52,616 nt of DNA from a phage: sequence record PZ379594.1; one strand, written 5' to 3'. This document shows positions 6,247 to 48,577 of the stretch, in pieces (position 1 is the first letter of the stretch; every line of letters starts with the position of its first letter). The position numbers were made by a program, and so were the translations under genes. The notes under the pieces were generated by a model, which was not told the origin of the DNA, made no database searches, and worked only from the letters and a program-made list of their open reading frames with translations.

Positions 6247-6518
6247 TTTCAATAGACCAAGTTCCAGTTGAACTAGGTAAGGCAAAAGGTAAGCTAGATA
6301 ATGCCAAATCCGACTTATCTGCCTTTGATTTAAATGCTCCAGTCGATAAAGTTAAAGTTTTCATCGACTGTATTGACGGATGGGTGCTTGTTGAGCACGC
6401 AGTCCTTCGAGCATTACTTGTTGATGAAGTTACCAAGGCTCAGGCATCATTTGATGAACTTGATAACCTCAACACACTGTTAAACAACACGTTAAACGAT
6501 GCGTTAAAGGGTAAATAA
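6243..6518 (+). CDS. hypothetical protein (91 aa)
   Basis: Start overlaps the upstream stop. Confidence 0.45.
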   Translation: MISIDQVPVELGKAKGKLDNAKSDLSAFDLNAPVDKVKVFIDCIDGWVLVEHAVLRALLVDEVTKAQASFDELDNLNTLLNNTLNDALKGK

Positions 6519-6931
6519 TGAATGTTAAGCTCGGTCAACGTTCTTTAGACCGACTTAAGGGAGTAAATCCTTCATTAGTTGCAGTATTCAAACGGGCATG
6601 TGAAACCATGCCTTTTGATGTAACTGTTTTAGAAGGTTTGCGCTCTTATGAACGTCAACAAGAACTGTTAAAACAAGGTGCAACCAAAGTTTCAGTAAGC
6701 CGACACATGTCTGGTAACGCTTTGGACATTGCACCATATCCAATTGACTGGAATGACCTCGAACGATTCAAAGTTTTAGCTCATCACATGTTCAAAGCTG
6801 CAAAAGAGCTTGGAATTACCATTCGTTGGGGTGGGAACTGGAGCCGTATTGATGAAAATCAGCCGTATCCACCACTTGCACCAGGTAAGAAGAAGCTGAT
6901 TGATATGCCGCACTTCGAACTTCCAGCATAA
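6518..6931 (+). CDS. peptidase M15-family peptidoglycan hydrolase (L-alanyl-D-glutamate peptidase-like)
   Basis: Motifs SRH-x3-G-x-A-x-D and D-x-P-H-F-E ([14 protein letters not shown] ... [10 protein letters not shown]) are typical of zinc M15 peptidases such as the T5-type endolysin; no signal peptide. Confidence 0.7.
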
Positions 6932-6951
6932 CTTCATCAATGGAGAATCCG

Positions 6952-7218
6952 ATGAATTATCAAGACATACCAGCAGAGATTCAGCATCACTATGCCCGTA
7001 TAGATAAGGCAAAGAAAGAATTGCATCAAATGTCTGCGCTGAATCTAAGCGATGAAGTTCGATTAAATGCTTATATGGAGGTTGGAGAAACTTCCATGAA
7101 AATTAGCTTCAATGAGAAAGAAGCTATTATGCGGACGCTTATTAAAAATAGCGAGGAAAGATTAGTAAAACTTCGTAAAATACATAGTGCATTAACTGAC
7201 ACAATGGAGAGCATATGA
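6952..7218 (+). CDS. hypothetical protein (~88 aa)
   Basis: ATG at 6952 with GGAG at 6942-6945; ATG at 6940 is an alternative. Confidence 0.45.
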
Positions 7219-7757
7219 GCACCATTATCCAAGCAATAGAAAATCTTAAGTCCTGGCGTAGAGATGAAACCTTATTGGTTCGTTTCTACACAGGCGAAAC
7301 TAATTCTGAATTTGTAGATGCGTGGATTGATGGCCTGTCTTGGCGTCACTATGATTTCGACATGCGGGATTATTTGCATGAAGAATACGGCATCGAATAC
7401 CCAAAAGATGGGACTTATGACATACTTGAATCAAGTGAAGCAGATGTAACAGAAGTTTGCTTTGCCAATGGCCTGTTCAGCATTCGCAAGTATGATAAGT
7501 TCAATGAGCTGCTTGTTGACACCGATTTGGATGTAATTCTTGCAGCATTCCGCAGTGGTGATATTGATATTTTCACTGTGAATGATTTGAACGACATGTT
7601 CATTACTCGTTGCGATTCAATTGCAGACTACTTCAAGCAAAGTGAAGCACTGGATATTCCAGACCGCCTTGCACCATATATTGATTGGGAAGCAATTGTG
7701 AAAGACTTCGGCAGCGACTATATCTTCTCTGAAGGAGTATTATTCCTAAATGTCTGA
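7215..7757 (+). CDS. acidic protein, possibly ArdA-like antirestriction (DNA mimic)
   Basis: Highly acidic; C-terminal [17 protein letters not shown] and N-terminal VDAWIDG resemble, from memory, the ArdA YIDY-AYGRDL and GAWF blocks; weak, needs profile search. Confidence 0.45.
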
Positions 7758-7986
7758 TTTAAATATCAACTCAATCAAGCCAGAAGATATTCTCTTCCAC
7801 CAGCCTCGTGGTCACTACTATCGAATTCTGTTTGCTACAAAGATTAAAACCCACTGCGGCAATTGGGTAGATGGGTTTGCTTACCAGGAAGTTAAGAAGT
7901 ATGGAAATCATACTTTCTTGGGAATTAATTCGGTAATTTACACAAGACCAAAGGAACTGTTTGATTCAGATTGGAAAGCAGTATAG
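7750..7986 (+). CDS. hypothetical protein (78 aa)
   Basis: Overlapping start; last ORF before an ~0.9 kb ORF-poor stretch. Confidence 0.45.
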   Translation: MSDLNINSIKPEDILFHQPRGHYYRILFATKIKTHCGNWVDGFAYQEVKKYGNHTFLGINSVIYTRPKELFDSDWKAV

Positions 7987-8050
7987 TTCCAGGCTGTTCC
8001 GTCGAAGTGCCAAGCGGGTTTTGTACTCGCATTGGCCTTCGGCTTAATTC

Positions 8051-8078
8051 TGAAACATTAGTAGAATTTGATTCTGAC
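8051..8078 (+). promoter_or_regulatory. conserved promoter-like motif, copy 2 (divergent: CTGAAACATTAGTAGAATTTGATTCTGA)
   Basis: Shares the 5' half AATTCTGAAACATTAGT with copy 3. Confidence 0.4.
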
Positions 8079-8190
8079 CTCTTAGGGAAGAAAGGCATTA
8101 TACACTTATCGCCAAATGGGTGTCAAGCACTTTCTTCATTTATTTAATTTTATTCTTATTATTCTTTTTGTTTGGAATATTGGAATAATT

Positions 8191-8219
8191 CTGAAACATT
8201 AGTTGGAATTGAAGAGACA
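8191..8219 (+). promoter_or_regulatory. conserved promoter-like motif, copy 3 (CTGAAACATTAGTTGGAATTGAAGAGACA)
   Basis: Intergenic; close match to the consensus. Confidence 0.5.
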
Positions 8220-8865
8220 ACATCATTGAAGTTCCTTCCATATCGTCTGGGTAGAAGCCCTGTGCACAAGGGTGGAGTGAAAGGTTCGAGTCCTTCCGAT
8301 TGCGCGAGGGAACTTCAAGATGGAATGTTTCCATCATATACATTTATCTTTTTAACATAGGCCAAAGGGCCGGAATACTTATTCGCAGAAAAGCTATTCA
8401 CTTGTTATAGGCGATGTATTGGGATGAATTGGAACTAAATAAGCAAGCTGTTAGGGCTGAATAATTAGAGGGTTATGCCTCATGCTTATGTTAGTCATTC
8501 GAAAATAGGTTTGTGCCACAAGCTGCTGGTGCTCTGAGGAAGTCGGACAAACAGGGCTTAGAGTGGCATAATCCGCACAAAACCGCGCCACCAGCTATGC
8601 CAAAGCAGGTAGGTTGGGTGAATGTATTGGGAAGGGTTACAAAGCCTCTGTGACCTCCGCAGCTTGCCAGGCTGCGGTGCAGTTATGATACGCAGGTCGC
8701 ACCCTAACGGGAGTAATCCTTCGCCAATGCAGTTATCCAGAATTGACACAAACGGTAGGCAGTGGCCCGATTTTCGGCCTTCCTGCGCTGCCCTGTGGCC
8801 TGTTTCCTGGGCCAAAAGATGAGAAGAGAAGTCACAAACACTGAATCGAAAATTGGAGAGTTCCT

Positions 8866-19355: not shown

Positions 19356-20378
19356 GTGAGTAAGAAACGAGTTTTGTTGCTGGTTGACGGCGACATGGTT
19401 GCATTCAGTCACTGTGCTGCTGAGGAATACGGCAAAGATTCAGAAGATATTAACTTTGCTAAGATTCAAATGTCAATGGATTCCAAGATGGAATTCCTTG
19501 CGAAACGTGTGGGAGCTACAGAAGTAGTTACCTGCATTTCACCATCCAAAACATTCCGCAACGTTCTTGCCGAGAATTACAAAGGCAATCGTGATGATGT
19601 TTGGCGACCAGAAAACTTGAAGAATGCGAAAGCACATCTTATGGTTGCCTGGAACGGCGTGTGGATGAAGGGTCTGGAAGCAGATGACCTTCTTGCTGTA
19701 TTCGCACGTCATGAATACGAAATGACAATGGGTAAACGTAATGAGATTAAGGGCCTCAAGCGCATTGGTCCTTGCACATATGATGAAGTCTGGATTGCGT
19801 CGCTGGACAAAGACTTGCGACAAATCGGGCAGAATGGTGGTGCTGGTCCAGTAATTAAACATTACCAATGGGAACGAGAAACCCAGGGTATTGGTGAGAA
19901 GGTTGTAACTCCGCAGGATTACGGCGAACTCAAATTAATCATCAAGGACAACGGCAAGTCGAAGAAGAAAGAAGTTAAAGGCAATGGCCCTAAATTCTTC
20001 TTGCATCAATTGCTTATTGGCGACTCGACGGATAACGCTATGGGTTGCGGAGTTCTTGAAGAAAGAATTTACAAAACTGGTGCCAAAGCTGGAGAAACTT
20101 ATTTCCGTCGTGATGGCATTGGTGCAGTTGCTTCATTCGAAATGCTGGATGGTACAACCTCCTATGCAGAAGGTTTGAAGAAAGTTATTGGTGCATATAT
20201 TGTGCGCTTCGGAGATGGTTGGGAACAAGAGCTACTCAAAGTAGGTCGCCTTGTTTACATGCACCATCAAATTGAAAAGGGTAATTGTGTTCGCTTGTGG
20301 CATTACAAGAACATTAACGAATACTTTGACCTTAAAGAGAATCGTATCCTCACTCAAGAAGAGTACCTCCAGAAATAA
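19356..20378 (+). CDS. 5'-3' exonuclease / flap endonuclease (T7 gp6-like)
   Basis: N-terminal LLLVDGDMVAF; GTG at 19356 with GGAG 9 nt upstream (listed TTG start at 19341). Confidence 0.7.
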   Translation: MSKKRVLLLVDGDMVAFSHCAAEEYGKDSEDINFAKIQMSMDSKMEFLAKRVGATEVVTCISPSKTFRNVLAENYKGNRDDVWRPENLKNAKAHLMVAWNGVWMKGLEADDLLAVFARHEYEMTMGKRNEIKGLKRIGPCTYDEVWIASLDKDLRQIGQNGGAGPVIKHYQWERETQGIGEKVVTPQDYGELKLIIKDNGKSKKKEVKGNGPKFFLHQLLIGDSTDNAMGCGVLEERIYKTGAKAGETYFRRDGIGAVASFEMLDGTTSYAEGLKKVIGAYIVRFGDGWEQELLKVGRLVYMHHQIEKGNCVRLWHYKNINEYFDLKENRILTQEEYLQK

Positions 20379-20389
20379 TTGGAGTTGGA

Positions 20390-33538: not shown

Positions 33539-33997
33539 ATGGCTTGTGAACTTCGTCAACGCGAGTTACAAGCCGACTCTGGTGATGTAGTCTTGGTTGG
33601 TACTCGTCAATTGAGTGCCAGCCAAGCTCTTGACCTACAAGTCGAGCTTGTTCAGAAACTTGGAACTTCAATCTTCCCATTCGTTGAGAATAAATATAAC
33701 TTTGCAGACATTATTTATTTAATGCAGCAAGGTGGGACGAGTAACGGAGTAACAGAATTAATTAAACGTGTAGTGTGCATGGCAACCATTGATGGTGTCG
33801 AAGTTACTCCACGCACTATGCAAATGAAATACAACGGCAACTTGATGCTTATGCACCATGTGTTTGCATTTGTTTTGGAATCGAACTTCCTTGATTTTTT
33901 CAAGCAAGGGCTCGAACTCAACGAACGCAGACGATTGGAGGCGGTGGAAGCATCCAAGATGGCCGAGCAGAAGAATTCGAGTCCGGAAACGATTTAA
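33539..33997 (+). CDS. tail assembly chaperone, in-frame short form
   Basis: 152-aa ORF immediately upstream of the tape measure; contains the slippery site. Confidence 0.6.
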   Translation: MACELRQRELQADSGDVVLVGTRQLSASQALDLQVELVQKLGTSIFPFVENKYNFADIIYLMQQGGTSNGVTELIKRVVCMATIDGVEVTPRTMQMKYNGNLMLMHHVFAFVLESNFLDFFKQGLELNERRRLEAVEASKMAEQKNSSPETI

Positions 33998-34170
33998 CTG
34001 CAAAGTTCCCGGAAATAAAATACTTCTTGCACCGTCCTGTAATAGAGGACAGTTCACTCTGTTCTCTTAAAGAGTTACAAGATGGGACCTACTCTATTAT
34101 GGATTTGTTGACCTTCCACGCAATACTCGATTTGCGTAACGAATTAAAACCTAAAGAAGAAGACAATGGC
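33539..34170 (+). CDS. tail assembly chaperone, predicted -1 frameshift long form (G-T-like, ~210 aa)
   Basis: Canonical G/GT (P2 E/E') arrangement: the -1 frame opens at the slippery heptamer and ends at the tape-measure start. Confidence 0.55.
33895..33901 (+). other. candidate -1 programmed frameshift site T_TTT_TTC
   Basis: Heptamer in the chaperone zero frame (GAT TTT TTC); the -1 frame has a stop at 33892-33894 and is then open for 92 codons to 34170, 4 nt past the tape-measure ATG. Confidence 0.6.
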
Positions 34171-37100
34171 TAATAACATAAAAGATTTGATGAGAATGTC
34201 CGAAGCCGAATTGATTGGCTTAGGCGCTCAATATGGTCTGTCGTTCAATCCAGGTATGCGCAAACGAGATATGGCACAGCAACTTGAATCAAGTGCTGCA
34301 TCTGGTTGGATGGAAACAAATTCGCAGCTTATGGAAGAAACTCATACAGAAGATGATGGCATCTCTTATGGCACTTCCGACATGATTTCAGACTCAGCCC
34401 ACATTGCACAGATGATTTCTGGCGCTGGGCTGACTGAAACATTCCATGCTGCAATGAACGGTCCAAGTCACCATGTAGAAGCTATTCATGCCTACATGGA
34501 GAAATTAGGTGTATCCGCCGATGATGTGTGGATGCACATGCCCAAAGCAAACCCGAACAAACCGGAAGGTCATTGGGGAATGCTTAATGCGTACATGCGT
34601 GATACGCTGACAGGCCATCAAGATATAATGCCAGAGCTTCCTGGACATTATTCAGGCGACATTATGGGCGAGTATTCCACAAACCGTGGAGATATTGCCA
34701 AGTCGTTCGGCTATCTTGCCCACATGTATGTTGACCGTGAACAGTACGACAACCCAGACCGCTATGCACGAGATGTTTATCGTGTAGCCAAACGTTTAGA
34801 ATCAGAATTGCCGCAAAACTTCCGAGAAGTTGCTGCGGTATCTGCAATGAATGTAGGAAATAAGTCGGGGCCAAAACTTTCATACATGGATTCATTGCCT
34901 AAACTTGGCTCTGAGTCAATTGTTAGTGGTATCCAACACCCTAGACAGCCACTTAACGCATCTGGTTTACCACTTGGCTCATTTGGCAGCGGTATTAATG
35001 CCGAATACTCATTATCTGCATCCTTATCTGGCTCGCCAGGCTGGTCTGATGTAAGTAGGACTCTGTACCAAGATGTTTCTAGCGTAGTTAAGTCTGCGGC
35101 AAAGGTCTATTCTGGTGATTCTGAAAGAGGAATGAACGCGTACCGCACTCAATCTTCTGACAGAGATTTGATTCTTGATTCTGCTTCCCGGTATACAGAC
35201 CTTGCTGATGCTCGTTCTGGTTATGACAACTTGAAGAAAGATATTGGCGATGACCCACGTTATTCTGGTGCATCAATTCGCGGTGTACTTGAAAATGCTC
35301 ACCAATATAATGAGGCCGAAGTTACCAAAACATTCGACCCTGCTGAACGTTTAAGAAATACTGGACCTACTGAACTTGGTACATCCAGTGAGTTTACGGC
35401 AAATCTGAATGAACCGACAAGTTGGAACTCTGCAAGGGATAGAAGAGAAGCTATTGCTATTGCAAATCTCGATAGTGCTGGTGCTGGACAGCCTAGTTCG
35501 GTTAAATACCACAATGCGCTCGAACAAGGTACGCAGGAGTGGCTTGATTTTCGTAAGCAGTACGATATTACTGGCTCTACTATTGGTGATTATCTGGGCC
35601 ACAACCCCGCAACCAATAATAGCCCAATACATACAATGGGCGAGAAGATTGGCCTCACAGTAAGAAAGGATTCTCCACGAGCACGTGAGAACTTTGAGCG
35701 TGGTCATAGGCTGGAAGCATGGGCCAGGCCAAGAGTTGGTGAGAAGTACGGGGTTGAGATAACCGAAACTGGCGCAATCACTAACGATAATTACCCTGGT
35801 ATGATGTACTCGCCAGATGGATTAATTGGTGATGACGCTCTGTGGGAACATAAGGCTCCAAACAACTTTAAAGATTTGGAATCAACTCCTAACTACATGG
35901 ACCAGATGCAACTTGGTATGCTTCTGAGTGGTCGTAGTCGCACCCTGTTTACTCAAACTGTTGGCGAAGAATCTCGTAGCCAGTGGGTTGATGCTGACCC
36001 AACGTGGTTCGAACGTAACAAGAATAAGATTGCATCTTCACAAGCACGCATGAAAGCTGGTCGTGAGTTTATGGAAAGCTCTGACCTTGAGGGCAAAGAC
36101 CTTATTAATGCAACTCGTGAAGTTATGTCTGGTGGTGGCATCTGGGGATACCAGACTCGTGACCACAGGGAAGGTGAAGGATACACGGCTGGTAAGCGTG
36201 GAATGGCAAGGTACAGTGCTGCTGCTGGCACTGATGATGACCCGTTCTTAAGAAACCGCACCGATGCTGGAATTGGTGCTTCTACAGCATCTGCTGTTGG
36301 TGCTGATAGCACAACTGGCAATGACCTGATGGCAGTATCTGTCAAGAAAGGTATTCTCGCTGCACAGGAAGAAAACAAGCTGCGTGGACAAGATGCCGAC
36401 TTTGGTGGAAATGATGGTCGTGGTGGCGGAGGTGGCTTCTGGGATACATTTGATGCCAGCAGTTATGGTATCAGCGGAGGTGGTTCTGGTGGCGGCGGTC
36501 GTGGTGGTTGGAGAGTTGGCGGTAGCTTCTCAGATGACTTCGGTCGTGCTGGTGGAGCATTGGCTGCTGGCGTAGCTGGTGGCAGCATTGGTTCATTATC
36601 CAATGGCGCAATGAATGCCCTCATGATGACTCCTTGGGGTCGTGTAGCTGGCATGGCTATTGGTGCTGCCCAGATTGGAAACGAAGCTCTGGAAGGTCTG
36701 AACGACTTCTACGGCAATTCTTTAGATGCTGGTGTTAATAATCCTAACGAATATTCTTCCATGACTCAGGGCATGGAAATGTTGGGACTTAACTCACAAC
36801 AAGCCAATCGACTCAATCAAACCACACATAGTGCCTATAACACCCTCCTAAATGGCGACCCCAGCGGCGCTGTGAACATCGTTCAGGGAACCCGTGGTCT
36901 TATCACAATTGGCGACATTCGTGCGGCACAGGGCGACCCTGTGGCCCTAGCGCGGATAATGCGTGAGCGTGGTCAGGAACGGGGTTGGAGCCAGGCCCGT
37001 ATTGCTGGTGCAATGCAAATGGCTGGTCTGGACGGTATGGCTCGTGCCTATGACCGCACAGAATACAGCATGAGCGAGGCTGAGGCGAACGTTAAGCGCG

Positions 37101-37855
37101 GAGCCGACTCAAACTATGCCGAAGGCGTTGCACAGCTAGGAATCGCGCAGACGGAGCGTGCTGGCGTACTGCCTGGATACGCTGTTCCGCAAGCTGCAAT
37201 TTCATACGGCAGCACCTTTATTGAGGCAGGCGGCGATGCCGCTAGAACGATGCGTGTGGCCTCCAACGGTACAGCCGATGCAGCACGTAATGTTTATGAC
37301 TTTATCGCAGGAGAAGAGTCAGGGAACCGCGATTTTAACGCAGATGGTTCGGTAGTTACATCGCCAACTGGTGCTAAAGGTCGTATGCAAGTTCTTGATT
37401 CAACTTCTCGTGACCCTGGCTTTGGTGTTCGTCCTGCCAAAGATAACTCACTTGAAGAACGTGCCCGTGTTGGTCGTGACTATTACGATGCAATGCTTAA
37501 GCGATATAATGGTGACGCTGAGAAGGCTATGGCGGCGTACACAGATGGTGCCGGAACTGTTGATGATGCTATCAACAAACATGGGACCGACTGGCTGAAC
37601 GCTGTTCCACTACAGGCACAGAACCGTGTCAAGAAGTACCGCGAATGGGCTTCTCAGGGAGATTCTATTGCAGAAGGTGCAACTGGATTCACCAGAAACG
37701 GACTGTCCTATGGTCAGACACAGCCCACCATAGTTAACGTTGAAGTCAAAGCTACCGTGAACAACAAACAAGCGTCTGCAACCGTGTCAACTCCGAACGG
37801 TCAAACTGTTACCCAAACAATCAACATGGGTAATGGTGCAATGGAACGCAGATAA
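34166..37855 (+). CDS. tail tape measure protein with C-terminal lytic transglycosylase-like domain
   Basis: 1229-aa ORF after the chaperone; Gly-rich segments; SLT-like block EESGNRDFNADGSVVTSPTGAKGRMQV...AYTDGAG. Confidence 0.75.
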   Translation: MANNIKDLMRMSEAELIGLGAQYGLSFNPGMRKRDMAQQLESSAASGWMETNSQLMEETHTEDDGISYGTSDMISDSAHIAQMISGAGLTETFHAAMNGPSHHVEAIHAYMEKLGVSADDVWMHMPKANPNKPEGHWGMLNAYMRDTLTGHQDIMPELPGHYSGDIMGEYSTNRGDIAKSFGYLAHMYVDREQYDNPDRYARDVYRVAKRLESELPQNFREVAAVSAMNVGNKSGPKLSYMDSLPKLGSESIVSGIQHPRQPLNASGLPLGSFGSGINAEYSLSASLSGSPGWSDVSRTLYQDVSSVVKSAAKVYSGDSERGMNAYRTQSSDRDLILDSASRYTDLADARSGYDNLKKDIGDDPRYSGASIRGVLENAHQYNEAEVTKTFDPAERLRNTGPTELGTSSEFTANLNEPTSWNSARDRREAIAIANLDSAGAGQPSSVKYHNALEQGTQEWLDFRKQYDITGSTIGDYLGHNPATNNSPIHTMGEKIGLTVRKDSPRARENFERGHRLEAWARPRVGEKYGVEITETGAITNDNYPGMMYSPDGLIGDDALWEHKAPNNFKDLESTPNYMDQMQLGMLLSGRSRTLFTQTVGEESRSQWVDADPTWFERNKNKIASSQARMKAGREFMESSDLEGKDLINATREVMSGGGIWGYQTRDHREGEGYTAGKRGMARYSAAAGTDDDPFLRNRTDAGIGASTASAVGADSTTGNDLMAVSVKKGILAAQEENKLRGQDADFGGNDGRGGGGGFWDTFDASSYGISGGGSGGGGRGGWRVGGSFSDDFGRAGGALAAGVAGGSIGSLSNGAMNALMMTPWGRVAGMAIGAAQIGNEALEGLNDFYGNSLDAGVNNPNEYSSMTQGMEMLGLNSQQANRLNQTTHSAYNTLLNGDPSGAVNIVQGTRGLITIGDIRAAQGDPVALARIMRERGQERGWSQARIAGAMQMAGLDGMARAYDRTEYSMSEAEANVKRGADSNYAEGVAQLGIAQTERAGVLPGYAVPQAAISYGSTFIEAGGDAARTMRVASNGTADAARNVYDFIAGEESGNRDFNADGSVVTSPTGAKGRMQVLDSTSRDPGFGVRPAKDNSLEERARVGRDYYDAMLKRYNGDAEKAMAAYTDGAGTVDDAINKHGTDWLNAVPLQAQNRVKKYREWASQGDSIAEGATGFTRNGLSYGQTQPTIVNVEVKATVNNKQASATVSTPNGQTVTQTINMGNGAMERR

Positions 37856-37860
37856 GAAAG

Positions 37861-37890
37861 TGCCGGGATTTAATCTCGGCATTCTTCTTT
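37861..37890 (+). terminator. intrinsic terminator-like hairpin (GCCGGGA-TTTAA-TCTCGGC + ATTCTTCTTT)
   Basis: 7-bp stem with one G-U pair followed by a U-rich tract. Confidence 0.5.
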
Positions 37891-37931
37891 AACATTATTT
37901 GAATATGTATTAATTTCAATAGGTGTATAAC

Positions 37932-39931: not shown

Positions 39932-40290
39932 CAGAACAACAAGCTATGCAAGAGATATTATCACTACTCCCACCAGGATATGTGAAGACTGTCCCATACG
40001 ATACCTCAAAGGATGTATCTTTCGAGTTTCGTGGTGTCACAGTCAAAATGTCTGCATTGTATTTAAACGAGTATTTAAACTGCTACATGTTTGACCTTGC
40101 TTGGGGTTCATCTGAAAAGATTTATGGAATCCCTATTCGCGGCGGTGTTGATATTCTTAAGCAATACAGCACACCACTGCCAAACATGTACGTTACGAAT
40201 ACTGTAAGTCCAGGAGAAGAGGTCTACACTTGGCGACAAATGTTCCTCTTCATTGTAGATGCGAGTGTACTTGAACGTGGCGAGTCATAA
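39928..40290 (+). CDS. baseplate-associated protein (120 aa)
   Basis: ATGA start/stop overlap. Confidence 0.5.
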   Translation: MTEQQAMQEILSLLPPGYVKTVPYDTSKDVSFEFRGVTVKMSALYLNEYLNCYMFDLAWGSSEKIYGIPIRGGVDILKQYSTPLPNMYVTNTVSPGEEVYTWRQMFLFIVDASVLERGES

Positions 40291-41050
40291 CAACGATGTA
40301 AGGTCTGCAACTGTTAATACAGGATACCCAGGCCATATTTATAACTTCGATGCTGTAACTCAAACCTGTGAGGTGCAGCTTGCAATCGAAAACCTGTTTA
40401 CAGGCTACACCAATGCCTACACCTTAGAGAAGAAGAAGCGGCTCAGAAATGTTCCTGTGCAGTTCATCCAAGGTGGCGGTTGGAGTCTAACACATCCAGT
40501 TCCAGATGGTACTCCTTGCTATGTCCATTTTGCTCAGCGCGGGATTGAACATTGGTTGGCAGAGAATAAAGACTCTGCTGGCATGATTGGTGGAAGACCT
40601 GCCCCAGCATTCAGCCAGTTGTTCTCTCACAACTCTGCTGTGTGTATTATTGGGATACAACCAATTCCAGGTGCAATACCAGGATTTAATGCAGGAGTTA
40701 CTGAACTCCGAAATGCAAGTCGCGACCAACGTCTGACTCTTCATGGTGACGGAAAGGTAGAACTTATTACTGGTGCTGCAAAGATTACAATCACGAAAGA
40801 TTCGGAGATAGTAATTGAAGCGACAGAAAAAGCGTCTGTTATCTCGCCGCAAATCCTTTTGGATGGCGACACCACAGTTACAAAATCGCTCACCGTTCTC
40901 GGAGGAATGTCAGTGTCAGGTGGCAGTGGTGGAACAATGTCAATTACAGGCGATATGGTTCAACAGGGTACGTTCACCATTAACGGAGTCACGGTTAACG
41001 AACACACCCACACTAACCCAGAGGGCGGCGATGTAGGGCCGATGAAATAA
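40259..41050 (+). CDS. baseplate central spike-like protein (C-terminal HTHT metal-binding motif)
   Basis: C-terminal GVTVNEHTHTNPEGG resembles His-rich spike tips of contractile-tail phages; start uncertain. Confidence 0.45.
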   Translation: MRVYLNVASHNNDVRSATVNTGYPGHIYNFDAVTQTCEVQLAIENLFTGYTNAYTLEKKKRLRNVPVQFIQGGGWSLTHPVPDGTPCYVHFAQRGIEHWLAENKDSAGMIGGRPAPAFSQLFSHNSAVCIIGIQPIPGAIPGFNAGVTELRNASRDQRLTLHGDGKVELITGAAKITITKDSEIVIEATEKASVISPQILLDGDTTVTKSLTVLGGMSVSGGSGGTMSITGDMVQQGTFTINGVTVNEHTHTNPEGGDVGPMK

Positions 41051-41421
41051 TGGCTGGAAACTTACTGTTAGATTCTAACCACGATATTATTATTGGTCGT
41101 GGTGCAACCAGGGTCGGTGGTGTAGAAGAGGTTGCTCAAATAGTTAAGTGCAGATTATTAACAGTGTTCGGAGAATGGAAGCATGACACGACCACTGGCC
41201 TCCCTTGGTTCGAGGGAATCTTCACTAAGACTGTCAGAACTGCTGATATTGAAGCAGCCATCGCCAACGTCATTCGAAGCACCCCAGGTGTTCAACAACT
41301 TATCTCTATAAATATTGATGCTGACTTCCGTGAGCGTGAAGTAAGAGTTTCATTCATTGCTATCTCAGATTATGGAAGTCTTGAGGATTACTTAACATGG
41401 CAACAATCCAGTACGGCGTGA
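41050..41421 (+). CDS. small baseplate wedge protein (gp25/W-like candidate)
   Basis: 123 aa, immediately upstream of a J-like gene. Confidence 0.45.
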   Translation: MAGNLLLDSNHDIIIGRGATRVGGVEEVAQIVKCRLLTVFGEWKHDTTTGLPWFEGIFTKTVRTADIEAAIANVIRSTPGVQQLISINIDADFREREVRVSFIAISDYGSLEDYLTWQQSSTA

Positions 41422-42551
41422 CTGAAAACGGGTTCGTACAGAAGCCTGTTCAAGAAATCGTGTCGCACATTAATAGCAGATTCCGTAGCGTGTTCGGTGC
41501 CAACTTCGACATTAGTCCAGAAGGCCCAGATGGACAGGTTATTGGAATTATTTCAGAAGAAATTTCTAAGTGTTGGCAACAGGCTGAAATGGTATTCAAT
41601 GCCTATCGTCCTGGTGCAATGCAGAAGGTTGGTCTGGACAACATCTGCGAACTAACCTTCACAAAGCGATTGGTCAATTGGCCGTCTCGTGTTGGTGTTC
41701 GTTGTGCTGGTCAGGCTGGCACTCTTGTCCCTGCTGGCTCTATTGTCAGTGACGGGACGATGAACTTCAAAACACAGTATGATTGTATTATTCCAGGAAC
41801 TGTTACGGCAGTAGCAACTGAGTCTGGCGAATACTACATTGCTGCTAACACTGTTAATAAAATTGTCACCACAGTCGCAGGTTGGGAATCAGTTAACAAC
41901 CCAGAGATTGGGCAAACAGGTGTGGATTATGAGTCTGACCCAGCACTTCGTATCCGCCGTGACAGAACTACTGCGCACAGCGGTTCAGCATTTGTTGAAG
42001 CTATTTACGCTGCACTCGCTGACCTTAATCTTTCTTACATTCGTATTCGTGATAATGATACCGGCGCTCCTATTGGGACTCAGCCTCCGGGTACAGTATT
42101 TGTTGTCGTAGAGGGTGGAACAGAGGACGAAATTGCTCGTCGAATTTACTCCTCCAAAACAGGCGGTGTTCCTACCCATGGTACTACATCCGTATCTATC
42201 TACGATAGTAAAGGCTATCCGCACGAAATTAAGTTCAGTCGTCCAGAAGATGCAACCATTTATGTAACTGGTACATTCAAGCGTCGCCCTGGTTCTAATA
42301 TTAGTTCCAACGATGCGGCACGCCAGTTGCAAACGGCTATGATGGAGTATATCAACTCCCTGAACCCAGGTGATTCTGTTATCTGGTCAGAATGTTTCAA
42401 GCCTATCATGGACGCTACTAACGGTGTTCAGGTTGATTCATTATTCATTGGTACTTCTGCGAGTCCAACTGGAATTGCTACAATCGAACTGGACATTGAC
42501 AAGAAGGCTGTAGCCACATCTGCGTCTGTAGTTTTCACTGAAACACCATAA
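41397..42551 (+). CDS. baseplate J-like protein
   Basis: 384 aa; size and position in the Mu/P2-like baseplate order. Confidence 0.5.
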   Translation: MATIQYGVTENGFVQKPVQEIVSHINSRFRSVFGANFDISPEGPDGQVIGIISEEISKCWQQAEMVFNAYRPGAMQKVGLDNICELTFTKRLVNWPSRVGVRCAGQAGTLVPAGSIVSDGTMNFKTQYDCIIPGTVTAVATESGEYYIAANTVNKIVTTVAGWESVNNPEIGQTGVDYESDPALRIRRDRTTAHSGSAFVEAIYAALADLNLSYIRIRDNDTGAPIGTQPPGTVFVVVEGGTEDEIARRIYSSKTGGVPTHGTTSVSIYDSKGYPHEIKFSRPEDATIYVTGTFKRRPGSNISSNDAARQLQTAMMEYINSLNPGDSVIWSECFKPIMDATNGVQVDSLFIGTSASPTGIATIELDIDKKAVATSASVVFTETP

Positions 42552-42559
42552 GGTTAATA

Positions 42560-43204
42560 ATGGCTGGTAAATCTGGTTTAGATATGCTGCTAATGCAGTA
42601 TAGCGATTCTCCAAACTTACGGGCGTACATTCAGATTTTCTTGGACGAGTTAAAGCTCGTCCAGAATGCTCAAGAAGAGTCTGTTAAATACCGATACCTT
42701 GCCGATTCATTTGGCGTTATGGTTGATGATATTGCATACCTCGTTGGTGCCAGCCGTACTATCTATGGTGCTGCACCACTTGGGCACTTCGGTTTCTATT
42801 CTGACCCAAGCGCATTCCCTGCCGGAGATGATAATAATCCTGGCGTTGGTGGCATTTTGAAATCAGATGGCGACCGGGACTCTGGTGACTTTGTTCGTAC
42901 CGATACTCAACTTAAAGATGCAATACGTGCACGTATCCGCAAGGTTGTAGGAAGCTGCACAATCGAAGAACTGATTGTTTATGTGGACCTTGTTCTTGGT
43001 CGTAGCCTGAATCTTGAAATCATTGAAGGATTCCAGACTCTACATTACCAAGTGCATAACACGCTGTCAGTTGCAGAGAAAGTGTTGTTGGCTTACATGC
43101 TTCCAGACTTTAAGCCTGTTGGCATCTCCATAACTCTTTCGGACAATGGTGGTGCTATTGAACTCCCATATGTTTCTAAAGTTTATCCACCGGAGAACCG
43201 ATGA
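42560..43204 (+). CDS. baseplate/tail-fiber attachment protein (gpI-like candidate)
   Basis: 214 aa; follows the J-like gene and precedes the tail fibre genes. Confidence 0.45.
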   Translation: MAGKSGLDMLLMQYSDSPNLRAYIQIFLDELKLVQNAQEESVKYRYLADSFGVMVDDIAYLVGASRTIYGAAPLGHFGFYSDPSAFPAGDDNNPGVGGILKSDGDRDSGDFVRTDTQLKDAIRARIRKVVGSCTIEELIVYVDLVLGRSLNLEIIEGFQTLHYQVHNTLSVAEKVLLAYMLPDFKPVGISITLSDNGGAIELPYVSKVYPPENR

Positions 43205-44400
43205 CAAATCGTTTGAATTACCCAGAATATTGGGCGCAGGATGGCGAAGCACTTGACCCCGACTTGGATACGACTGCACCATCCTATATCCCAGACCGAT
43301 ACGAAAATGTCGGCTGGGAAGCTGAAAAGCCTCCCGAACAATGGCAGAACTTCTTAACTCAAATCACTGACGTTAAGATTCGAGATATGTTGGTTGGTGG
43401 GATATTGCAATGGTGTGATACCGTAACATATTCGCTTGGCGCTTTTGCAATAGTTGATGGTAAGATTTATCAGAAGCGGGAAGAGATTCCTGGCAATATA
43501 AGTCCTCCAACCTCCGGAAGTGGTTGGCAAGAGGTTCTTGAGACAAACCTTATTAAGTTTAATGAAAAGGTTCAATATCTCAAGAATGTGTTCAATGCTC
43601 ATATGGCAGAACAGAACCCTCATAAAGATACTGTAGACACAATTATTGATGGGACATATCTTCAAGAATATGTGTACGACAGATTCGCCAGTGACGAACG
43701 AGTTACAACAATCCCATATCACATCTCCAGAACCGGTGCATCTGTCCACAGGGTAACTCCAGAACAGCTTGGAACACTTCCAACATCTGGTGGGACTTTC
43801 ACAGGACCAATAACTTTCACCGAAGAGGCGTATGCTGGTAGTGGTGTTTCACAATATGTACACCGAAATGATTCGACTGGCATATTCGAATTGGTTAATG
43901 GGACTGCTGCAATTGGTGTGGACAGTAGTGGCCATGCGTGGTTCATAAACTCCGCTGGTGCTTTTGAAATCATTACGGAAGCAAACTACAACAAGTTCAA
44001 CATTAAGTATGGAAACCAGTTTGCACTCCCTGTGCCAATGCTTCGTGCTGACTTTCATGAAGACATTAATGACGCAGGGTCTGTTGGTCTGTGGACCGTT
44101 GAGACAACCGCTGCCCCAGAATTTTGGTATGGCGGATTTAACATCTCCAACAATGGGTTGAAGTTCTTTGGACCAACCTTCAACATCCCAACCACAGTGG
44201 TTGTTGTAGTTACTACCGATGAAGTTGATGTAGTTATGCGAACTTCTAATGAAGATTCTTTCAGCTTTCCAGATGGACTTGACCTGAAAGACTACATTGA
44301 TAACAAACTCTTTGCAGATAAGAATGTAATGGCCCTAAGATTCTTTGAGGTATATCCAAGACTTTCTGCTAACCAAATCTCTATGCTTGCGAGACGATAA
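43201..44400 (+). CDS. tail fibre protein 1
   Basis: Fibre-like composition with NPHK/NPHR repeats shared with the next gene. Confidence 0.55.
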   Translation: MTNRLNYPEYWAQDGEALDPDLDTTAPSYIPDRYENVGWEAEKPPEQWQNFLTQITDVKIRDMLVGGILQWCDTVTYSLGAFAIVDGKIYQKREEIPGNISPPTSGSGWQEVLETNLIKFNEKVQYLKNVFNAHMAEQNPHKDTVDTIIDGTYLQEYVYDRFASDERVTTIPYHISRTGASVHRVTPEQLGTLPTSGGTFTGPITFTEEAYAGSGVSQYVHRNDSTGIFELVNGTAAIGVDSSGHAWFINSAGAFEIITEANYNKFNIKYGNQFALPVPMLRADFHEDINDAGSVGLWTVETTAAPEFWYGGFNISNNGLKFFGPTFNIPTTVVVVVTTDEVDVVMRTSNEDSFSFPDGLDLKDYIDNKLFADKNVMALRFFEVYPRLSANQISMLARR

Positions 44401-45791
44401 TGTTAAGACCAAAACTTAATAGAGTCTGGACTTCAAACAATGCCAACCTACGGCGTGACCCTGGGGATGCCAAGTATCTTCAAGGGTGGATTGCAGAAAT
44501 CCCAACCTTCCAGGTTCTTAACTATTTGCAGTATAAGGTTGACACTACTCTCCTAGCACTGGCTGAGCGTGGTGTCTTCGAATGGGGAACCGATGTTCAG
44601 TATGGACTTGGTTCCCTCGTGTGGGATGATGCAACTCGAACTGTTTATGTTGCAACTGTTGGTTCTCCTAGCCGTACTTTACGTCCTAGTGAGAACTTGG
44701 GGCAGTGGGCGGCAAGTGCTATTCAAGTATCTCGTTACGACTACGATGATATTGTTAGCAAGATTTCTGCACACATCGCAGATGTCACTTCCAACCCACA
44801 TCGACTGACAGCCAACATGATTGGTGCATACAACAAAGCACAAATCGATTCGCTGATTTCTCAGTACAATGCCCTTGTTGCGAGTCATGCCAATGACCGA
44901 AACAATCCGCACAAAGTAACTGCTGCCCAGGCAGGTGCTGTTCCTGTCGCTGGTGGTACTTACACCGGACCTGTTACATTCCAGCAAGGTATGCTGTTTG
45001 ATGTAAGCGGAACTTCTAAGTTGTCGTTTGGTCCTGCTGGCCTTTATATGCAGTCAGGTGACGAACGTATTGGGCTGGATGCCAGTGGTGTTCCGGTTGT
45101 TGGCAAGGCATCAACAAACACCAACTCCCGAATTATTACCGATGCAACATTTGCAGAAGTTAAGGCGCGAGAAGAGCCAAAGTATGCAGTACCTGCACCA
45201 AATTTCTGTCAGCACTTGATTGGTGATTTTAATATCAACTCTGGCAAGGGTGCAATCAATGCCTCCGACAGTCTGTATTTTAACAACGATTATGGTGGTG
45301 CTCTGTACAGAACTGCTGGGCAGGATGTTCGAGAAACTCTTTACGAAGGTGCGGGATATGGATTTACAGACTGCACAATCTGTGTGGATGTTCTTTCCAA
45401 CTCGCCTCGTGCGCCGAGCAGTGACGACTCTGTTGGCGTATTCTTCTCCTTAAATGGATTGAATAGCGAGAACATAGACTTCTATTTGCAGAACAAGGGG
45501 CAGCTCAACCTTAACCGAAATGCCTCTGGTGCTAGTGACTGGATTTACTATAATCTCCCTAACCGAGTGAATCGCTGGTATCGTATTGCTGCAACCCTAA
45601 GTACGACCACTGGACTTGAAATATATGTTGATGGTGTTCGTGTGGCTGCTGATGCCTCACAGAATGGTGCGGCTGCATGTGTTGGTAGGTATCCTCAGAT
45701 TCATTTCCAGCCAACATCAAGAAACTATGCTGTTCGCAACTTCCGAGTTTGGGATTTCAAAATGACACCAAACCAAATCTCTACTTTATAA
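44400..45791 (+). CDS. tail fibre protein 2
   Basis: NPHRLTANMIGAYNKAQIDS and NPHKVTAAQAGA repeat motifs typical of fibre shafts. Confidence 0.55.
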   Translation: MLRPKLNRVWTSNNANLRRDPGDAKYLQGWIAEIPTFQVLNYLQYKVDTTLLALAERGVFEWGTDVQYGLGSLVWDDATRTVYVATVGSPSRTLRPSENLGQWAASAIQVSRYDYDDIVSKISAHIADVTSNPHRLTANMIGAYNKAQIDSLISQYNALVASHANDRNNPHKVTAAQAGAVPVAGGTYTGPVTFQQGMLFDVSGTSKLSFGPAGLYMQSGDERIGLDASGVPVVGKASTNTNSRIITDATFAEVKAREEPKYAVPAPNFCQHLIGDFNINSGKGAINASDSLYFNNDYGGALYRTAGQDVRETLYEGAGYGFTDCTICVDVLSNSPRAPSSDDSVGVFFSLNGLNSENIDFYLQNKGQLNLNRNASGASDWIYYNLPNRVNRWYRIAATLSTTTGLEIYVDGVRVAADASQNGAAACVGRYPQIHFQPTSRNYAVRNFRVWDFKMTPNQISTL

Positions 45792-45800
45792 GGTAATGTA

Positions 45801-47153
45801 ATGGCTAAAGGTTGGTCATTTGGCGGCTTAATTGCCGCCTTAAAGTCTGCTGCATTCTTAAATGCAGGTACTGCTCGTGGTGAAGTAATCACTGTTGGAC
45901 AAAAAAATGCCCAGATTCCAACCACAGCATTTGTAACAAACTTTAATTTCAATACATACACATTCACCAATGGTGAGGTTCTATATGTTGAGATGAACTC
46001 TGCTGTAAACGTTCCACCAGAGTTACAGAAGTGGGACCTTGGGAAGTTCAGTGGGGCATATGTAATTATAACTGTGCTTGGAATTTCTGATAACAGCAAT
46101 GCCTCCATCCTCGTAACACATGGTGAGGCAGCACGACCTCCAATCATGTACTACTCTCGCGGACCGTCTGGCAGCAGGTCGTACACAGCGCAACCCCTAA
46201 TGTCTTGCAAGGATGCCGGAAGCGCGAACATTAACCTGTTTACAGGTGCGTCAGATGTTGGTGTTTATTATCAAGAGTCTGATGTTGTTGCTGGCTCTGC
46301 TGGTGGCTATCCAGCAGCACATGCTGGCACACTGGAGGTTTTGCCAACTGCATATGGTGTACAGCAACGCTATACATCCATATATGGTAACGTTTGGGTT
46401 CGTAGTCGTACACTTGATTCCTCGCAGAATTGGGCCGATTGGAGAGAGCTTGCACGAGTAAACCAGCGCGACCGTATTACAGAAGTTGGTGCAATAGAGT
46501 TGTATAACGATATTCCATACATCGACTTCCACTATGCAAACTCTGGTTTAGACTACACTGCACGTATTATTGCAGAAGGATACAATCAGTTAGCTTTACG
46601 TGGAACTGGCACAGACTTCAAGCTGTTCCTGAATGGGCAGTATCGCGGCGTAACTTGGGGCCGTGGTTGGGGTCAAGAAACAGATGGGCACGTCCCTTAT
46701 GGAGTGTATAACTGCGAAGTTGGTCCAGATGCCTGGGTCCCAATCTTGACACTCCAAACTGTAACATCTGGTCAAGGGTATGGAACTCATATTTCGTTTG
46801 GTGCGTACAGCAGAAATAATGATTTCTCAAATCCTGTAATCTCACGACGTGGTGATAATGGTGCTGTACACAACTGGACATTCCAGAATGACGGCAACAT
46901 TGACTACACTGGCAATGGTGGTCCATTCCGTTTTGCACGGGAGAATTGGGTAAACTCTTCTTTCATGAGCGATATTCGCCTGGCCTCCTACCAAGAGACT
47001 ACCACATGGCGTGGCTACGGGTATCGGGATGAATCTGGTTGGGTAATCACTGCTGTAATCAACCAAACTGCTGACGAATTCATCGACTATGTTGGTCGTC
47101 GTAAACTCCAGAAATATATGAATGGAACATGGTATGACAGCTACTCTGTGTAA
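45801..47153 (+). CDS. tail fibre / receptor-binding protein 3
   Basis: Long G/Y/N/T-rich ORF followed by a tail-fibre-assembly-like gene. Confidence 0.5.
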   Translation: MAKGWSFGGLIAALKSAAFLNAGTARGEVITVGQKNAQIPTTAFVTNFNFNTYTFTNGEVLYVEMNSAVNVPPELQKWDLGKFSGAYVIITVLGISDNSNASILVTHGEAARPPIMYYSRGPSGSRSYTAQPLMSCKDAGSANINLFTGASDVGVYYQESDVVAGSAGGYPAAHAGTLEVLPTAYGVQQRYTSIYGNVWVRSRTLDSSQNWADWRELARVNQRDRITEVGAIELYNDIPYIDFHYANSGLDYTARIIAEGYNQLALRGTGTDFKLFLNGQYRGVTWGRGWGQETDGHVPYGVYNCEVGPDAWVPILTLQTVTSGQGYGTHISFGAYSRNNDFSNPVISRRGDNGAVHNWTFQNDGNIDYTGNGGPFRFARENWVNSSFMSDIRLASYQETTTWRGYGYRDESGWVITAVINQTADEFIDYVGRRKLQKYMNGTWYDSYSV

Positions 47154-47664
47154 GTATGAAGGGTTTGTTGAGAATACGAACCTGACTGAAAGCCAACAAG
47201 TGCTCAGGGACGAGCACAAGATTCTATTCGGATGCGATAAGAATGGAACATGTTGGTATAAAATTCGTGAGTCTTTAAAGGACGGTACCGCCAAAGTTGT
47301 ATACGAAAATGATGGGACTATTCGACACATCGACTTTGGTCCTGGTGATACTGTGGCTACACCGCTGGGTGGAAACATAGTTGAGCTGGAGTCGCTGCCA
47401 GAGGGTGTTGAAGAAAACAGACACTTTTGGAAGTTTGATGGTGAGAAGTTTGTCGAGCATAAAGAAAACCGTGTGAAATATAACGAGTTTATGCGTAAGA
47501 AGAAACTTGCACCATTGACGGAAGAAATTAGCATTCTCACTGACATGGTTGAGCTTGGTATGGCCAAGAAGTCTGACAACGAACTGCTTATTAAACTTAA
47601 GAAGAAGCGTATCAAACTGCATCAACTCGACCTAACCGAAACAATCGACTGGAATGAATTCTAA
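47122..47664 (+). CDS. tail fibre assembly protein (Tfa-like)
   Basis: ~180 aa directly after a fibre gene; C-terminal K-rich helical region similar to Tfa chaperones; start uncertain (47122 or 47134). Confidence 0.5.
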   Translation: MEHGMTATLCKYEGFVENTNLTESQQVLRDEHKILFGCDKNGTCWYKIRESLKDGTAKVVYENDGTIRHIDFGPGDTVATPLGGNIVELESLPEGVEENRHFWKFDGEKFVEHKENRVKYNEFMRKKKLAPLTEEISILTDMVELGMAKKSDNELLIKLKKKRIKLHQLDLTETIDWNEF

Positions 47665-48005
47665 TGGATAGACAAACTTTCCAGATGATTTGGGAAGCAA
47701 TGCACCAATACGGCGTTTGGCATGGACTGTTGGCTGGACTGACAGCCTTAATCCGTGGTGCGTATGAGAGTGAGGGTTTAAGCAAAGCGTTGCTGGATGC
47801 GACGCTATGTAGCTTAATCGGGCTGTTTGCATTTCAGGTCGCAGGTACATTTGAAACTTTCACAACTAACGTCACTATGCAGTTGGTGTTAGCCATTGTG
47901 ATTGGTGTCATTGGTGCCAACCTCATTATCACAACTGTCAGGGAAAGTTTCTCTGGCGCAATCAAACAACTTAATCCTTTGACGTGGTTCAAGAAGGCAC
48001 GATGA
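47664..48005 (+). CDS. holin (lambda S-like)
   Basis: IRGAYESEGLSKALLDATLCSLIGLF resembles lambda S [27 protein letters not shown] as recalled; possible dual start M1/M8. Confidence 0.6.
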   Translation: MDRQTFQMIWEAMHQYGVWHGLLAGLTALIRGAYESEGLSKALLDATLCSLIGLFAFQVAGTFETFTTNVTMQLVLAIVIGVIGANLIITTVRESFSGAIKQLNPLTWFKKAR

Positions 48006-48022
48006 AATGGTAAGGAACTCGA

Positions 48023-48577
48023 ATGTTATCATTCAAAGTCCTTGCACTTCTGACAGCTTTAGTTCACATCAACGCCCCAGCTTCGGTTGGGGCAGTGAAT
48101 TCTGCTATTACAGATTTTGCAAGTCACTCTTATTTAAATGGAAGTCTGAAACTATCTTCTTCACAACGCAAAGAGCTAGAATGCTATACTAAAGTTATAT
48201 GGTATGAAGCTCGCGGAGAAGACAAACATGGAAAGATTCTGGTAGCTAATGTCGTCCGTAATAGAACTAAGTTCGGGAAGCCATTCGCTAACACCGTTTG
48301 TGATGTTGTCTATCAACGCAATCAATTTGCATGGACACGAGAAGCAAAGAAGAAGAATGCTCAATGGAAGCATGTAGCAAAGATTAATTATGCCACAGAA
48401 CAACAACAAGTTCTGGACACCATTAATGTTGCAATCTCTTTTGTACTGTTTAATCAACCCTCTGTCACCAAAGCAACCCACTTTTGTACAGCATCGGAGA
48501 AGTGCAACTTCAAGAATGTTAAAGGTTTGGGACGTTATGGTGGCCATAAATTCTATGAGTATCTAGGAAATCTGTAA
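48023..48577 (+). CDS. endolysin, SleB/CwlJ-type cell-wall hydrolase with N-terminal signal sequence
   Basis: Hydrolase_2-type block VIWYEARGE...LVANVVRNR...[12 protein letters not shown]; hydrophobic N-terminus; AAGGAA RBS; adjacent to the holin. Confidence 0.65.

Follow-up and report, generated by a model that had tools for sequence, protein, structure and literature searches.

Three peptidoglycan-degrading domains in a phiEcoM-GJ1-like phage genome and a proposed division of labor between entry and lysis

Results

Three domains for peptidoglycan degradation are encoded in one phage genome

The sequence record PZ379594.1 contains 52,616 nucleotides (nt) of phage DNA, and this whole stretch is referred to as the window in the following. 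Three parts of the window were used as queries in nucleotide searches, which identified an E. coli myophage that is similar to phiEcoM-GJ1 (GJ1 below) and belongs to the genus Carltongylesvirus (Chaseviridae, Cleopatravirinae). The nearest relative is BSBP01 with 97–98.6% identity, followed by vB_Shi_2KOFFS, PO103-1, and Ecp_YSF. A preliminary description had listed three distinct peptidoglycan-degrading activities in this genome, i.e., an M15 peptidase, a SleB-type hydrolase, and a lytic transglycosylase-like domain of the tape measure, and it had proposed domain searches. Searches with Pfam and PHROG confirmed all three families, and the M15, Hydrolase_2, and SLT domains all scored above the Pfam cut-offs. 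In the reading that we favor, the domain of the tape measure would serve entry and the other two enzymes would probably serve lysis.

The M15 peptidase and its transcription unit

The gene at 6518..6931 (+ strand) encodes a zinc peptidase of family M15C with 137 amino acids (aa), a predicted L-alanyl-D-glutamate endopeptidase of the EndoT5/EndoRB49 type. The open reading frame matched Pfam Peptidase_M15_4 with 35.7 bits (cut-off 25) and PHROG 465 ("endolysin") at 1.5e-54. The sequence matches in the PDB were 23ri and 8q2g (2–4e-24), EndoT5 (2mxz, 1e-19), and ChiX (5opz, 9e-18). In an alignment, the residues H63, D70, D129, H132, and W108 corresponded to H66, D73, D130, H133, and W114 of EndoT5. 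These are the zinc ligands, the catalytic aspartate, and a conserved tryptophan, and all of them are retained in 10 orthologs from Chaseviridae. The roles of the residues follow PMC10487532; the GJ1 protein is already part of the M15C alignment published there. The presence of catalytic residues, which the preliminary description had left to be checked by alignment, was thus verified for H63, D70, D129, and H132, and the enzyme is predicted to cleave the L-Ala-D-Glu bond. The protein contains neither a transmembrane domain (TMD) nor an export signal. The maximal Kyte-Doolittle mean over 19 residues is 1.03, and no segment reaches a value of at least 1.6, in agreement with the earlier statement that a signal peptide is missing. 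The ratio of nonsynonymous to synonymous substitution rates (dN/dS) of 0.03–0.32 revealed purifying selection.

The C-terminal third of the protein (codons ~81–137) exists in two variants among the relatives, one of which reads …TWERTFTKPVKWAKFLDAPH. The window carries the variant of the ST32/SKA49 type. The SKA49 paper reported a recombination break in the M15 protein, at aa 81/82, to which the two variants correspond.

The gene is located about 41 kb from the holin gene on the physical map. Its start codon overlaps the stop codon of the upstream gene (TAATG), and it is preceded by an AAAGGG ribosome-binding site. For the analysis of transcription, the promoter consensus CATTAGTTGGATGTGA was built from the nine promoters annotated in GJ1. 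A scan of the + strand with this consensus yielded 9–10 promoter-like sites in the window, compared to 0.1–0.7 expected by chance. One of these sites, at 4289..4304 (+ strand), is an exact match to the consensus and stands at the head of the unit that contains the M15 gene, and a second site at 8056 brackets the unit on the other side. The first gene of the unit, at 4380..4757 (+ strand), encodes a single-stranded DNA-binding protein (SSB) with 67% identity to GJ1 gp15, which is annotated as "single strand DNA binding protein." The unit also contains an ArdA-like anti-restriction gene at 7215..7757 (+ strand), which matched PHROG 14321 at 1.2e-50 and shares 78% identity with GJ1 gp22. Given the two flanking sites, the shared unit with SSB as its first gene and with ArdA, and the overlapping stop and start codons, the M15 gene is probably transcribed by the phage RNA polymerase as a "middle" gene instead of a truly early one. 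The earlier placement among the early genes therefore probably does not hold. The unit resembles the class II region of T7 and is located outside of the early region transcribed by the host polymerase. A terminator-like hairpin within the M15 gene (6594–6613) was regarded as a chance occurrence, as nine such sites were found and 9.4 were expected.

The SleB-type enzyme and its predicted export signal

The second enzyme is encoded at 48023..48577 (+ strand). It is a SleB-type (Hydrolase_2) lytic transglycosylase of 184 aa that is predicted to be exported and to act as the endolysin of the holin cassette. The gene starts only 18 nt after the stop codon of the holin gene and has an AAGGA ribosome-binding site before its start codon. 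The match to Pfam Hydrolase_2 scored 58.8 bits (cut-off 27) and covered positions 1–100 of the 100 positions of the profile. An AlphaFold model, built on 30 homologs, reached a pLDDT of 86. A Foldseek search with this model retrieved the catalytic domains of SleB (4fet and 4f55) with a probability of 1.00 and a TM-score (target) of 0.62–0.68, and all other matches had E-values above 1. The residues C54, E62, R64, G65, E66, and C93 are invariant in the 30 homologs. E62 aligns with the GESRGE motif of 4f55, and we take it to be the catalytic glutamate as described for the SleB structures. The invariant C54 and C93 suggest a periplasmic disulfide, with which they would be compatible. The N-terminal PG_binding domain of full-length Bacillus SleB was not matched, and Pfam assigned Hydrolase_2 only; the protein thus represents a SleB-type catalytic domain and not a full SleB ortholog. 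The dN/dS values of 0.04–0.26 again indicate purifying selection. For SleB-type endolysins from phages of Gram-negative hosts, a literature search yielded no relevant experimental work.

The first 20 residues (48023..48082, + strand) form a predicted export signal, which is probably cleaved after APA, as judged from sequence features. In the AlphaFold model, residues 1–20 have pLDDT values below 50. Eight divergent orthologs, including those of pAh6-C and T5 (T5p081), and the 30-sequence alignment share a short positive start and a hydrophobic core of 8–12 residues. The core is followed by polar residues with a proline and then by a small-x-small site of the form x-(P/L)-A|S. The earlier description as a signal-bearing hydrolase beside the holin thus agrees with these features and with the 18-nt gap. 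The literature and several database records, that of Mangalitsa among them, label the enzyme a signal-arrest-release (SAR) endolysin; the Myduc ortholog, annotated by the same group, carries the label "No TMD - endolysin (not SAR)." The maximal 19-residue Kyte-Doolittle mean of the N-terminus is 1.64, compared to 2.07 for the SAR domain of P1 Lyz and 2.11 for that of R21. The short hydrophobic region, the proline, the conserved A-x-A-type site, and the hydrophobicity below that of SAR domains favor a cleavable Sec signal over a SAR domain.

The tape measure carries an SLT domain and a nuclease domain

The third domain is part of the tape measure, a virion protein of 1229 aa encoded at 34166..37855 (+ strand). 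The assignment of this protein is based on a full-length match to PHROG 19855, on synteny, and on the presence of its ortholog in virions of the related phage 4HA13. In CsCl-purified 4HA13 virions, the ortholog was detected by liquid chromatography-mass spectrometry with 64–67% coverage. The gene is flanked by a tail assembly chaperone gene on the 5′ side (33539..33997, + strand; Pfam Phage_TAC_15 at 1.8e-14) and by a Dit-like gene and baseplate genes on the 3′ side.

An SLT (GH23) lytic transglycosylase domain is located at 37256..37588 (+ strand). Pfam SLT matched aa 1064–1140 (nt 37355–37585) with 28.5 bits (cut-off 21.3), and PHROG 1044 (6.6e-13) widened the match to aa 1031–1141 (nt 37256–37588). 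The region of about 37.4–37.6 kb that had been given for a transglycosylase domain near the C-terminus was thus accurate, if slightly narrow. The ortholog of GJ1 scored 48.5 bits and covered profile positions 6–107. The catalytic Glu-Ser pair is E1051-S1052. This ES motif (aa 1051–1052), the motif TSPTGAKGRMQV (TSPTGAxGxMQ), and the motif AAYTDGAG are retained in GJ1, Mangalitsa, and Myduc. In a sequence search of the PDB, the region gave only a weak match to Slt70-type enzymes (E-value 0.14), and therefore, the SLT assignment rests on Pfam, PHROG, and the conservation of the motifs.

The tape measure also contains a YqaJ/lambda-exonuclease-type nuclease domain at aa 458–590 (35537..35935, + strand; Pfam YqaJ at 9.8e-11 and PDB 3syy at 1.5e-10). 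Its PD-(D/E)XK motifs, SPDG549 and WEHK560, are conserved, and the domain is apparently intact. The combination of YqaJ and SLT is also present in Myduc and GJ1, and a YqaJ domain is found in the tape measure of pAh6-C, so that the domain occurs in both subfamilies of the Chaseviridae. An exhaustive HMMER search with the YqaJ domain against 1.84 billion representatives showed that the approximately 25 closest clusters (at 50% identity) all consist of proteins of 1190–1530 aa with the domain in a central position. Several of the more distant ones among them also bear a C-terminal SLT domain. In the literature, no account of a tape measure with an internal nuclease domain was found, and this domain seems to be more unusual than the finding of three wall-degrading enzymes.

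In a further region of the tape measure, aa ~760–830 (36.5–37.1 kb), a low-complexity stretch with many glycines precedes a hydrophobic segment rich in alanine and glycine. This region coincides with a local maximum of the G+C content (0.506), and megablast leaves this part of the gene unaligned in most relatives.

Holin, spanins, and genome layout

The gene upstream of the SleB-type gene, at 47664..48005 (+ strand), encodes a class I holin of the lambda S family. It matched Phage_holin_3_1 (PF05106) with 34.9 bits (cut-off 23.8) and PHROG 126. The hydrophobicity profile shows two strong segments and one weaker one, and orthologs are annotated as "holin class I" or with "three TMDs." The spanin pair is encoded apart from the holin/SleB cassette, at 12233–12602. 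The i-spanin (12233..12469, + strand) has an N-terminal TMD (aa 1–27) and 97% identity to GJ1 gp31, a "Rz-like spanin," and the ortholog of Myduc is annotated as i-spanin. The o-spanin gene (12393..12602, + strand) overlaps the i-spanin gene and encodes a lipoprotein signal with the lipobox IVS|C; its Myduc ortholog is annotated as o-spanin.

The window is a complete genome in circular permutation, and its start falls inside the direct terminal repeat. In Mangalitsa, this repeat has a length of 3.2 kb and carries the RNA polymerase gene. Mapping on Mangalitsa placed the physical left end at about 49.9–50.07 kb of the window, and the repeat corresponds to 49.9–52.6 kb plus 1 to about 0.5 kb. 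The gene for the single-subunit, T7-type RNA polymerase of the phage (50277–52217) is located inside the repeat, and one promoter-like site was found at 50194, just upstream of the gene, and another at 52536. Read along the physical map, the genome starts with the RNA polymerase gene and small early genes, followed by the SSB-M15-ArdA unit, the spanins, replication genes, head and tail genes, and finally holin, SleB, and nrdB. The annotated genomes of GJ1 and Mangalitsa have the same gene order as the window.

The last late unit begins downstream of the tape measure. A terminator-like hairpin with an 11-bp stem, detected by the consensus scan only, directly follows the stop codon of the tape-measure gene (37859..37883, + strand). 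The next element is a phage promoter-like site with one mismatch to the consensus (37893..37907, + strand), which is equivalent to "promoter 9" of GJ1. The unit that starts at 37893 contains the baseplate and fiber genes, holin, SleB, and nrdB, and ends at a terminator-like site at 49727–49742. Its last gene, nrdB (48577..49677, + strand), encodes the small subunit of ribonucleotide reductase according to the annotation in relatives. It comes right after the SleB-type gene, and no gene for the large subunit is annotated in GJ1 and Mangalitsa. The middle region also encodes a T4 Imm-like superinfection immunity protein (11464–11715; Pfam 9e-18) and an HNH_3 endonuclease (10728–11186). The window does not contain a tRNA gene, whereas GJ1 carries a tRNA-Arg.

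Conservation of the two enzymes in the Chaseviridae

The SleB gene was found at the right genome end in all phages examined, namely Mangalitsa, Myduc, the loessnerviruses Fifi44 and Mauresque, and the Aeromonas phage pAh6-C of the Nefertitivirinae. The holin gene immediately precedes it in the four Cleopatravirinae among them, i.e., in all but pAh6-C, where no holin homolog was detected. The PP101 paper describes the holin-SleB module for all phages of the group.

The type of the M15 enzyme is more variable than the position of the SleB gene. Enzymes of the M15_4 type occur in Carltongylesvirus, in 4HA13, in three IMG/VR contigs of about 54 kb that carry the RNA polymerase gene, and, according to a tblastn match, in Mauresque. 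Overall, a signal-less M15 zinc peptidase in an SSB-proximal module was found in Carltongylesvirus, Sabourvirus, the three IMG/VR contigs, and Myduc. The Proteus phage Myduc has no M15_4 gene, and a Peptidase_M15_3 (2e-30) is encoded in the same SSB-proximal module at 8689–9054, apparently as a replacement by a non-orthologous gene. The pAh6-C genome has an M15_4-like gene (gp30) directly upstream of the SleB-type gene (gp31) at 19440–20387, just before the RNA polymerase gene. All genes of the GenBank record of pAh6-C are annotated as "hypothetical," and gp30 was assigned with Pfam and PHROG. A tblastn search with the M15 protein of the window did not retrieve a homolog from pAh6-C, and thus, the two M15 genes are distant and possibly represent independent acquisitions. 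The adjacency of M15 and SleB in pAh6-C argues that both enzymes belong to lysis.

Local linkage of the two genes was analyzed at 74 IMG/VR loci with SleB homologs, using the M15_4 and M15_3 profiles on up to 10 kb on each side. Only one weak M15 match was obtained, and a general linkage of M15 and SleB was therefore rejected.

Discussion

A proposed division of labor between entry and lysis

Taken together, the results led us to the following proposal, in which we have moderate confidence: The wall is opened for entry by the SLT domain of the tape measure, and lysis is brought about by the holin, the exported SleB-type enzyme, the M15 enzyme released by the holin, and the spanins. During infection, the virion-borne SLT domain would open the wall locally upon contraction of the tail and ejection of the tape measure. 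The M15C L-Ala-D-Glu peptidase would be made comparatively early, from the "middle" unit of the phage polymerase together with SSB and ArdA, and it would build up harmlessly in the cytoplasm. The late unit would then produce the class I holin and the SleB-type transglycosylase, the latter being exported by Sec, most likely with a cleavable signal. The M15 enzyme would reach the wall only once the holin has opened large holes, and it would cut the peptide stems while the SleB-type enzyme cuts the glycan strands. Subsequently, the i- and o-spanins would disrupt the outer membrane. The lack of a signal on the M15 enzyme is not anomalous in this scheme, because a large-hole class I holin would release such an endolysin.

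Several points weigh against this proposal. No data on expression, localization, or activity of either enzyme were found for any member of the Chaseviridae, and the published annotations of the SleB-type enzyme are split between SAR and non-SAR. The SleB-type and the M15C enzyme are each the sole predicted endolysin in many other phages, and thus, one of the two may be dispensable here. Furthermore, if the SleB-type enzyme is exported in a soluble and active form, it must be restrained until the holin fires. Lastly, the presence of a holin of the lambda S type is no proof that a cytoplasmic endolysin is needed; in P1, a canonical holin is combined with a SAR endolysin.

Alternative explanations

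The two lysis enzymes could be divided as in T5-like phages, with M15 as the real endolysin that depends on the class I holin, and with the secreted SleB-type protein as an accessory periplasmic wall remodeler that stands beside the holin by chance. In T5-like phages, the M15 homolog indeed adjoins the holin, EndoT5 is a characterized endolysin, and the gene of the SleB homolog T5p081, which bears a classical signal peptide, is located elsewhere. The holin of the window, a member of the large-hole lambda S family, would suit a cytoplasmic enzyme. Nevertheless, we regard such a split as unlikely. In both subfamilies, the SleB gene is found at the same end of the genome, directly after the holin in the Cleopatravirinae examined, whereas the type and the position of M15 vary. 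In addition, 73 of the 74 SleB-type loci from IMG/VR have no M15 gene nearby, and the SleB-type enzyme is the only predicted endolysin in other phages, e.g., in SKA64. This last observation bears also on the idea of obligate cooperation, in which the SleB-type enzyme, although already exported, would be inert on intact sacculi until M15 released by the holin has stripped the stem peptides, leaving a glycan similar to spore cortex. Bacillus SleB acts on the peptide-poor glycan of the cortex, and the pair of M15 and a SleB-type enzyme with signal peptide recurs in Cleopatravirinae, in Nefertitivirinae (as adjacent genes), and in T5-like phages. The existence of phages with a SleB-type enzyme as sole predicted endolysin is difficult to reconcile with a strict dependence on M15, and the idea lost further support when a single weak M15 match was found within 10 kb of the 74 SleB homologs. 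We therefore consider it to be improbable.

Two further possibilities remove M15 from lysis. In one of them, the enzyme would act mainly inside the cell, either as a regulator of the phage RNA polymerase or by cleaving cytoplasmic wall precursors at the L-Ala-D-Glu bond to stop wall synthesis of the host. The gene has a class II-like position as T7 gp3.5 has, in a phage with a T7-type polymerase, it encodes no export signal, and it would be co-transcribed with host-takeover genes such as ArdA. On the other hand, the fold is unrelated to that of T7 lysozyme (Amidase_2), and the M15 enzyme is not known to bind or inhibit the polymerase. The active site is fully conserved, EndoT5, EndoRB49, and ChiX are bona fide wall peptidases that act together with holins, and the M15 gene of pAh6-C is part of a lysis cluster. 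A mainly intracellular role is thus very unlikely, and we assign a similarly slight, if anything marginally smaller, probability to an additional job of M15 before lysis, i.e., polymerase modulation or destruction of wall precursors. If such a job existed, the retention of M15 beside a complete holin/SleB cassette would not be redundancy. The least probable possibility by far is that M15 is a virion-associated ejection enzyme, for which no direct support was found. The gene belongs to the replication and host-takeover module, at a great distance from the structural genes, the tape measure already bears a wall-cutting domain, and the protein is absent from the 15 proteins listed for virions of the related phage 4HA13, a list that is confined to proteins with at least 50% coverage.

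Significance for lysis biology

The finding of three enzymes is of little significance as stated, because the three genes are annotated in dozens of relatives in GenBank and the layout with two hydrolases is in print. Its value for lysis biology lies in two questions, namely which of two intact and conserved endolysins is used in Chaseviridae and in T5-like phages, and what holds back a Sec-exported transglycosylase before the holin fires. These questions are sharpened by three comparative points: the preference for a cleavable signal over a SAR domain, the adjacency of M15 and SleB in the Nefertitivirinae, and the location of an M15 gene in the gp3.5 slot of a T7-like phage. The M15 and the SleB-type enzyme are both small proteins that might be considered as candidate enzybiotics.

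Comparison with known systems

The closest comparison is with other members of Carltongylesvirus. phiEcoM-GJ1, ST32, SKA49, and Mangalitsa have the same lysis genes in the same order, and nothing essential differs. Their M15 proteins are 81–100% and their SleB-type proteins 96–100% identical to those of the window, and their tape measures also carry YqaJ and SLT domains. In the GJ1 record, gp21 is annotated as endolysin, and for gp62, the transglycosylase domain is noted; the record also mentions a "probable T4 gp5 analog." The Mangalitsa record lists an "L-alanyl-D-glutamate peptidase," a "holin class I," and a "SAR endolysin." According to the SKA49 paper of 2023, the two cell-wall hydrolases are distributed over two modules, and a spanin is encoded at a distance. 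In view of these annotations and this paper, the arrangement of three enzymes is typical of the family and was already known as stated.

Compared to EndoT5, EndoRB49, and Serratia ChiX, the M15 enzyme of the window belongs to the same family and has the same size (137 aa) and the same catalytic residues; the characterized enzymes are likewise signal-less and depend on a holin. The two loop insertions of EndoT5 are missing, the protein groups with structures of the RB49/RB43 type, and its gene does not stand beside the holin gene.

The position of the M15 gene is similar to that of T7 gp3.5 and of the M15 gene of T7-Ah, in that a cytoplasmic zinc-dependent wall hydrolase is encoded among DNA-metabolism genes that are transcribed by a single-subunit phage polymerase. 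T7 gp3.5 belongs to Amidase_2 and acts as an inhibitor of the polymerase as well, the T7 holin gene follows the tail-fiber gene as it does here, and the SLT domain of T7 resides on the ejected protein gp16. The M15 protein of the window did not match Amidase_2 in Pfam and has an M15 fold, and therefore, its gene is only a positional analog of the T7 lysozyme gene. In the Aeromonas phage T7-Ah (6685–7333), a Peptidase_M15_4 of the pAh6-C type occupies the gp3.5 slot. The gene order there is SSB, endonuclease I, an open reading frame of 104 aa (annotated as "putative lysozyme," no Pfam match), Peptidase_M15_4, and DNA polymerase. The layout of the window thus corresponds to the T7 pattern with one addition, the SleB-type enzyme that is predicted to be exported.

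In T5-like phages, the M15 homolog adjoins the holin gene, and the Hydrolase_2 gene, T5p081 with its classical signal peptide, is found elsewhere. The tail protein pb2 of T5 has muralytic activity, and consequently, T5 has the same trio of enzymes, with M15 and a SleB homolog as the other two. In contrast to T5, the SleB-type gene of the window adjoins the holin gene. The view of M15 as the odd one out among the three enzymes therefore held only in part. Its gene is far from the holin gene, and its type is not universal, with an M15_3 enzyme in Myduc and a distant M15 beside SleB in pAh6-C. However, it is not anomalous, as illustrated by the T7 lysozyme slot, the M15 gene of T7-Ah, the pairing in T5-like phages, and the two published modules of SKA49.

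The SleB-type enzyme shares the Hydrolase_2 family and fold, including the invariant glutamate in the motif (Y/F)E(A/S)RGE, with Bacillus SleB (4fet and 4f55) and T5p081. In contrast to Bacillus SleB, the substrate must be ordinary Gram-negative murein and not cortex with muramic lactam. Lastly, T7 gp16, T5 pb2, and T4 gp5 function in entry. Like the SLT domain of gp16, the wall-cutting domains of these proteins reside on an ejected tail or core protein, and the same arrangement for entry is predicted here. Unlike in those three proteins, the SLT domain of the window is fused to a tape measure that also bears a YqaJ domain.

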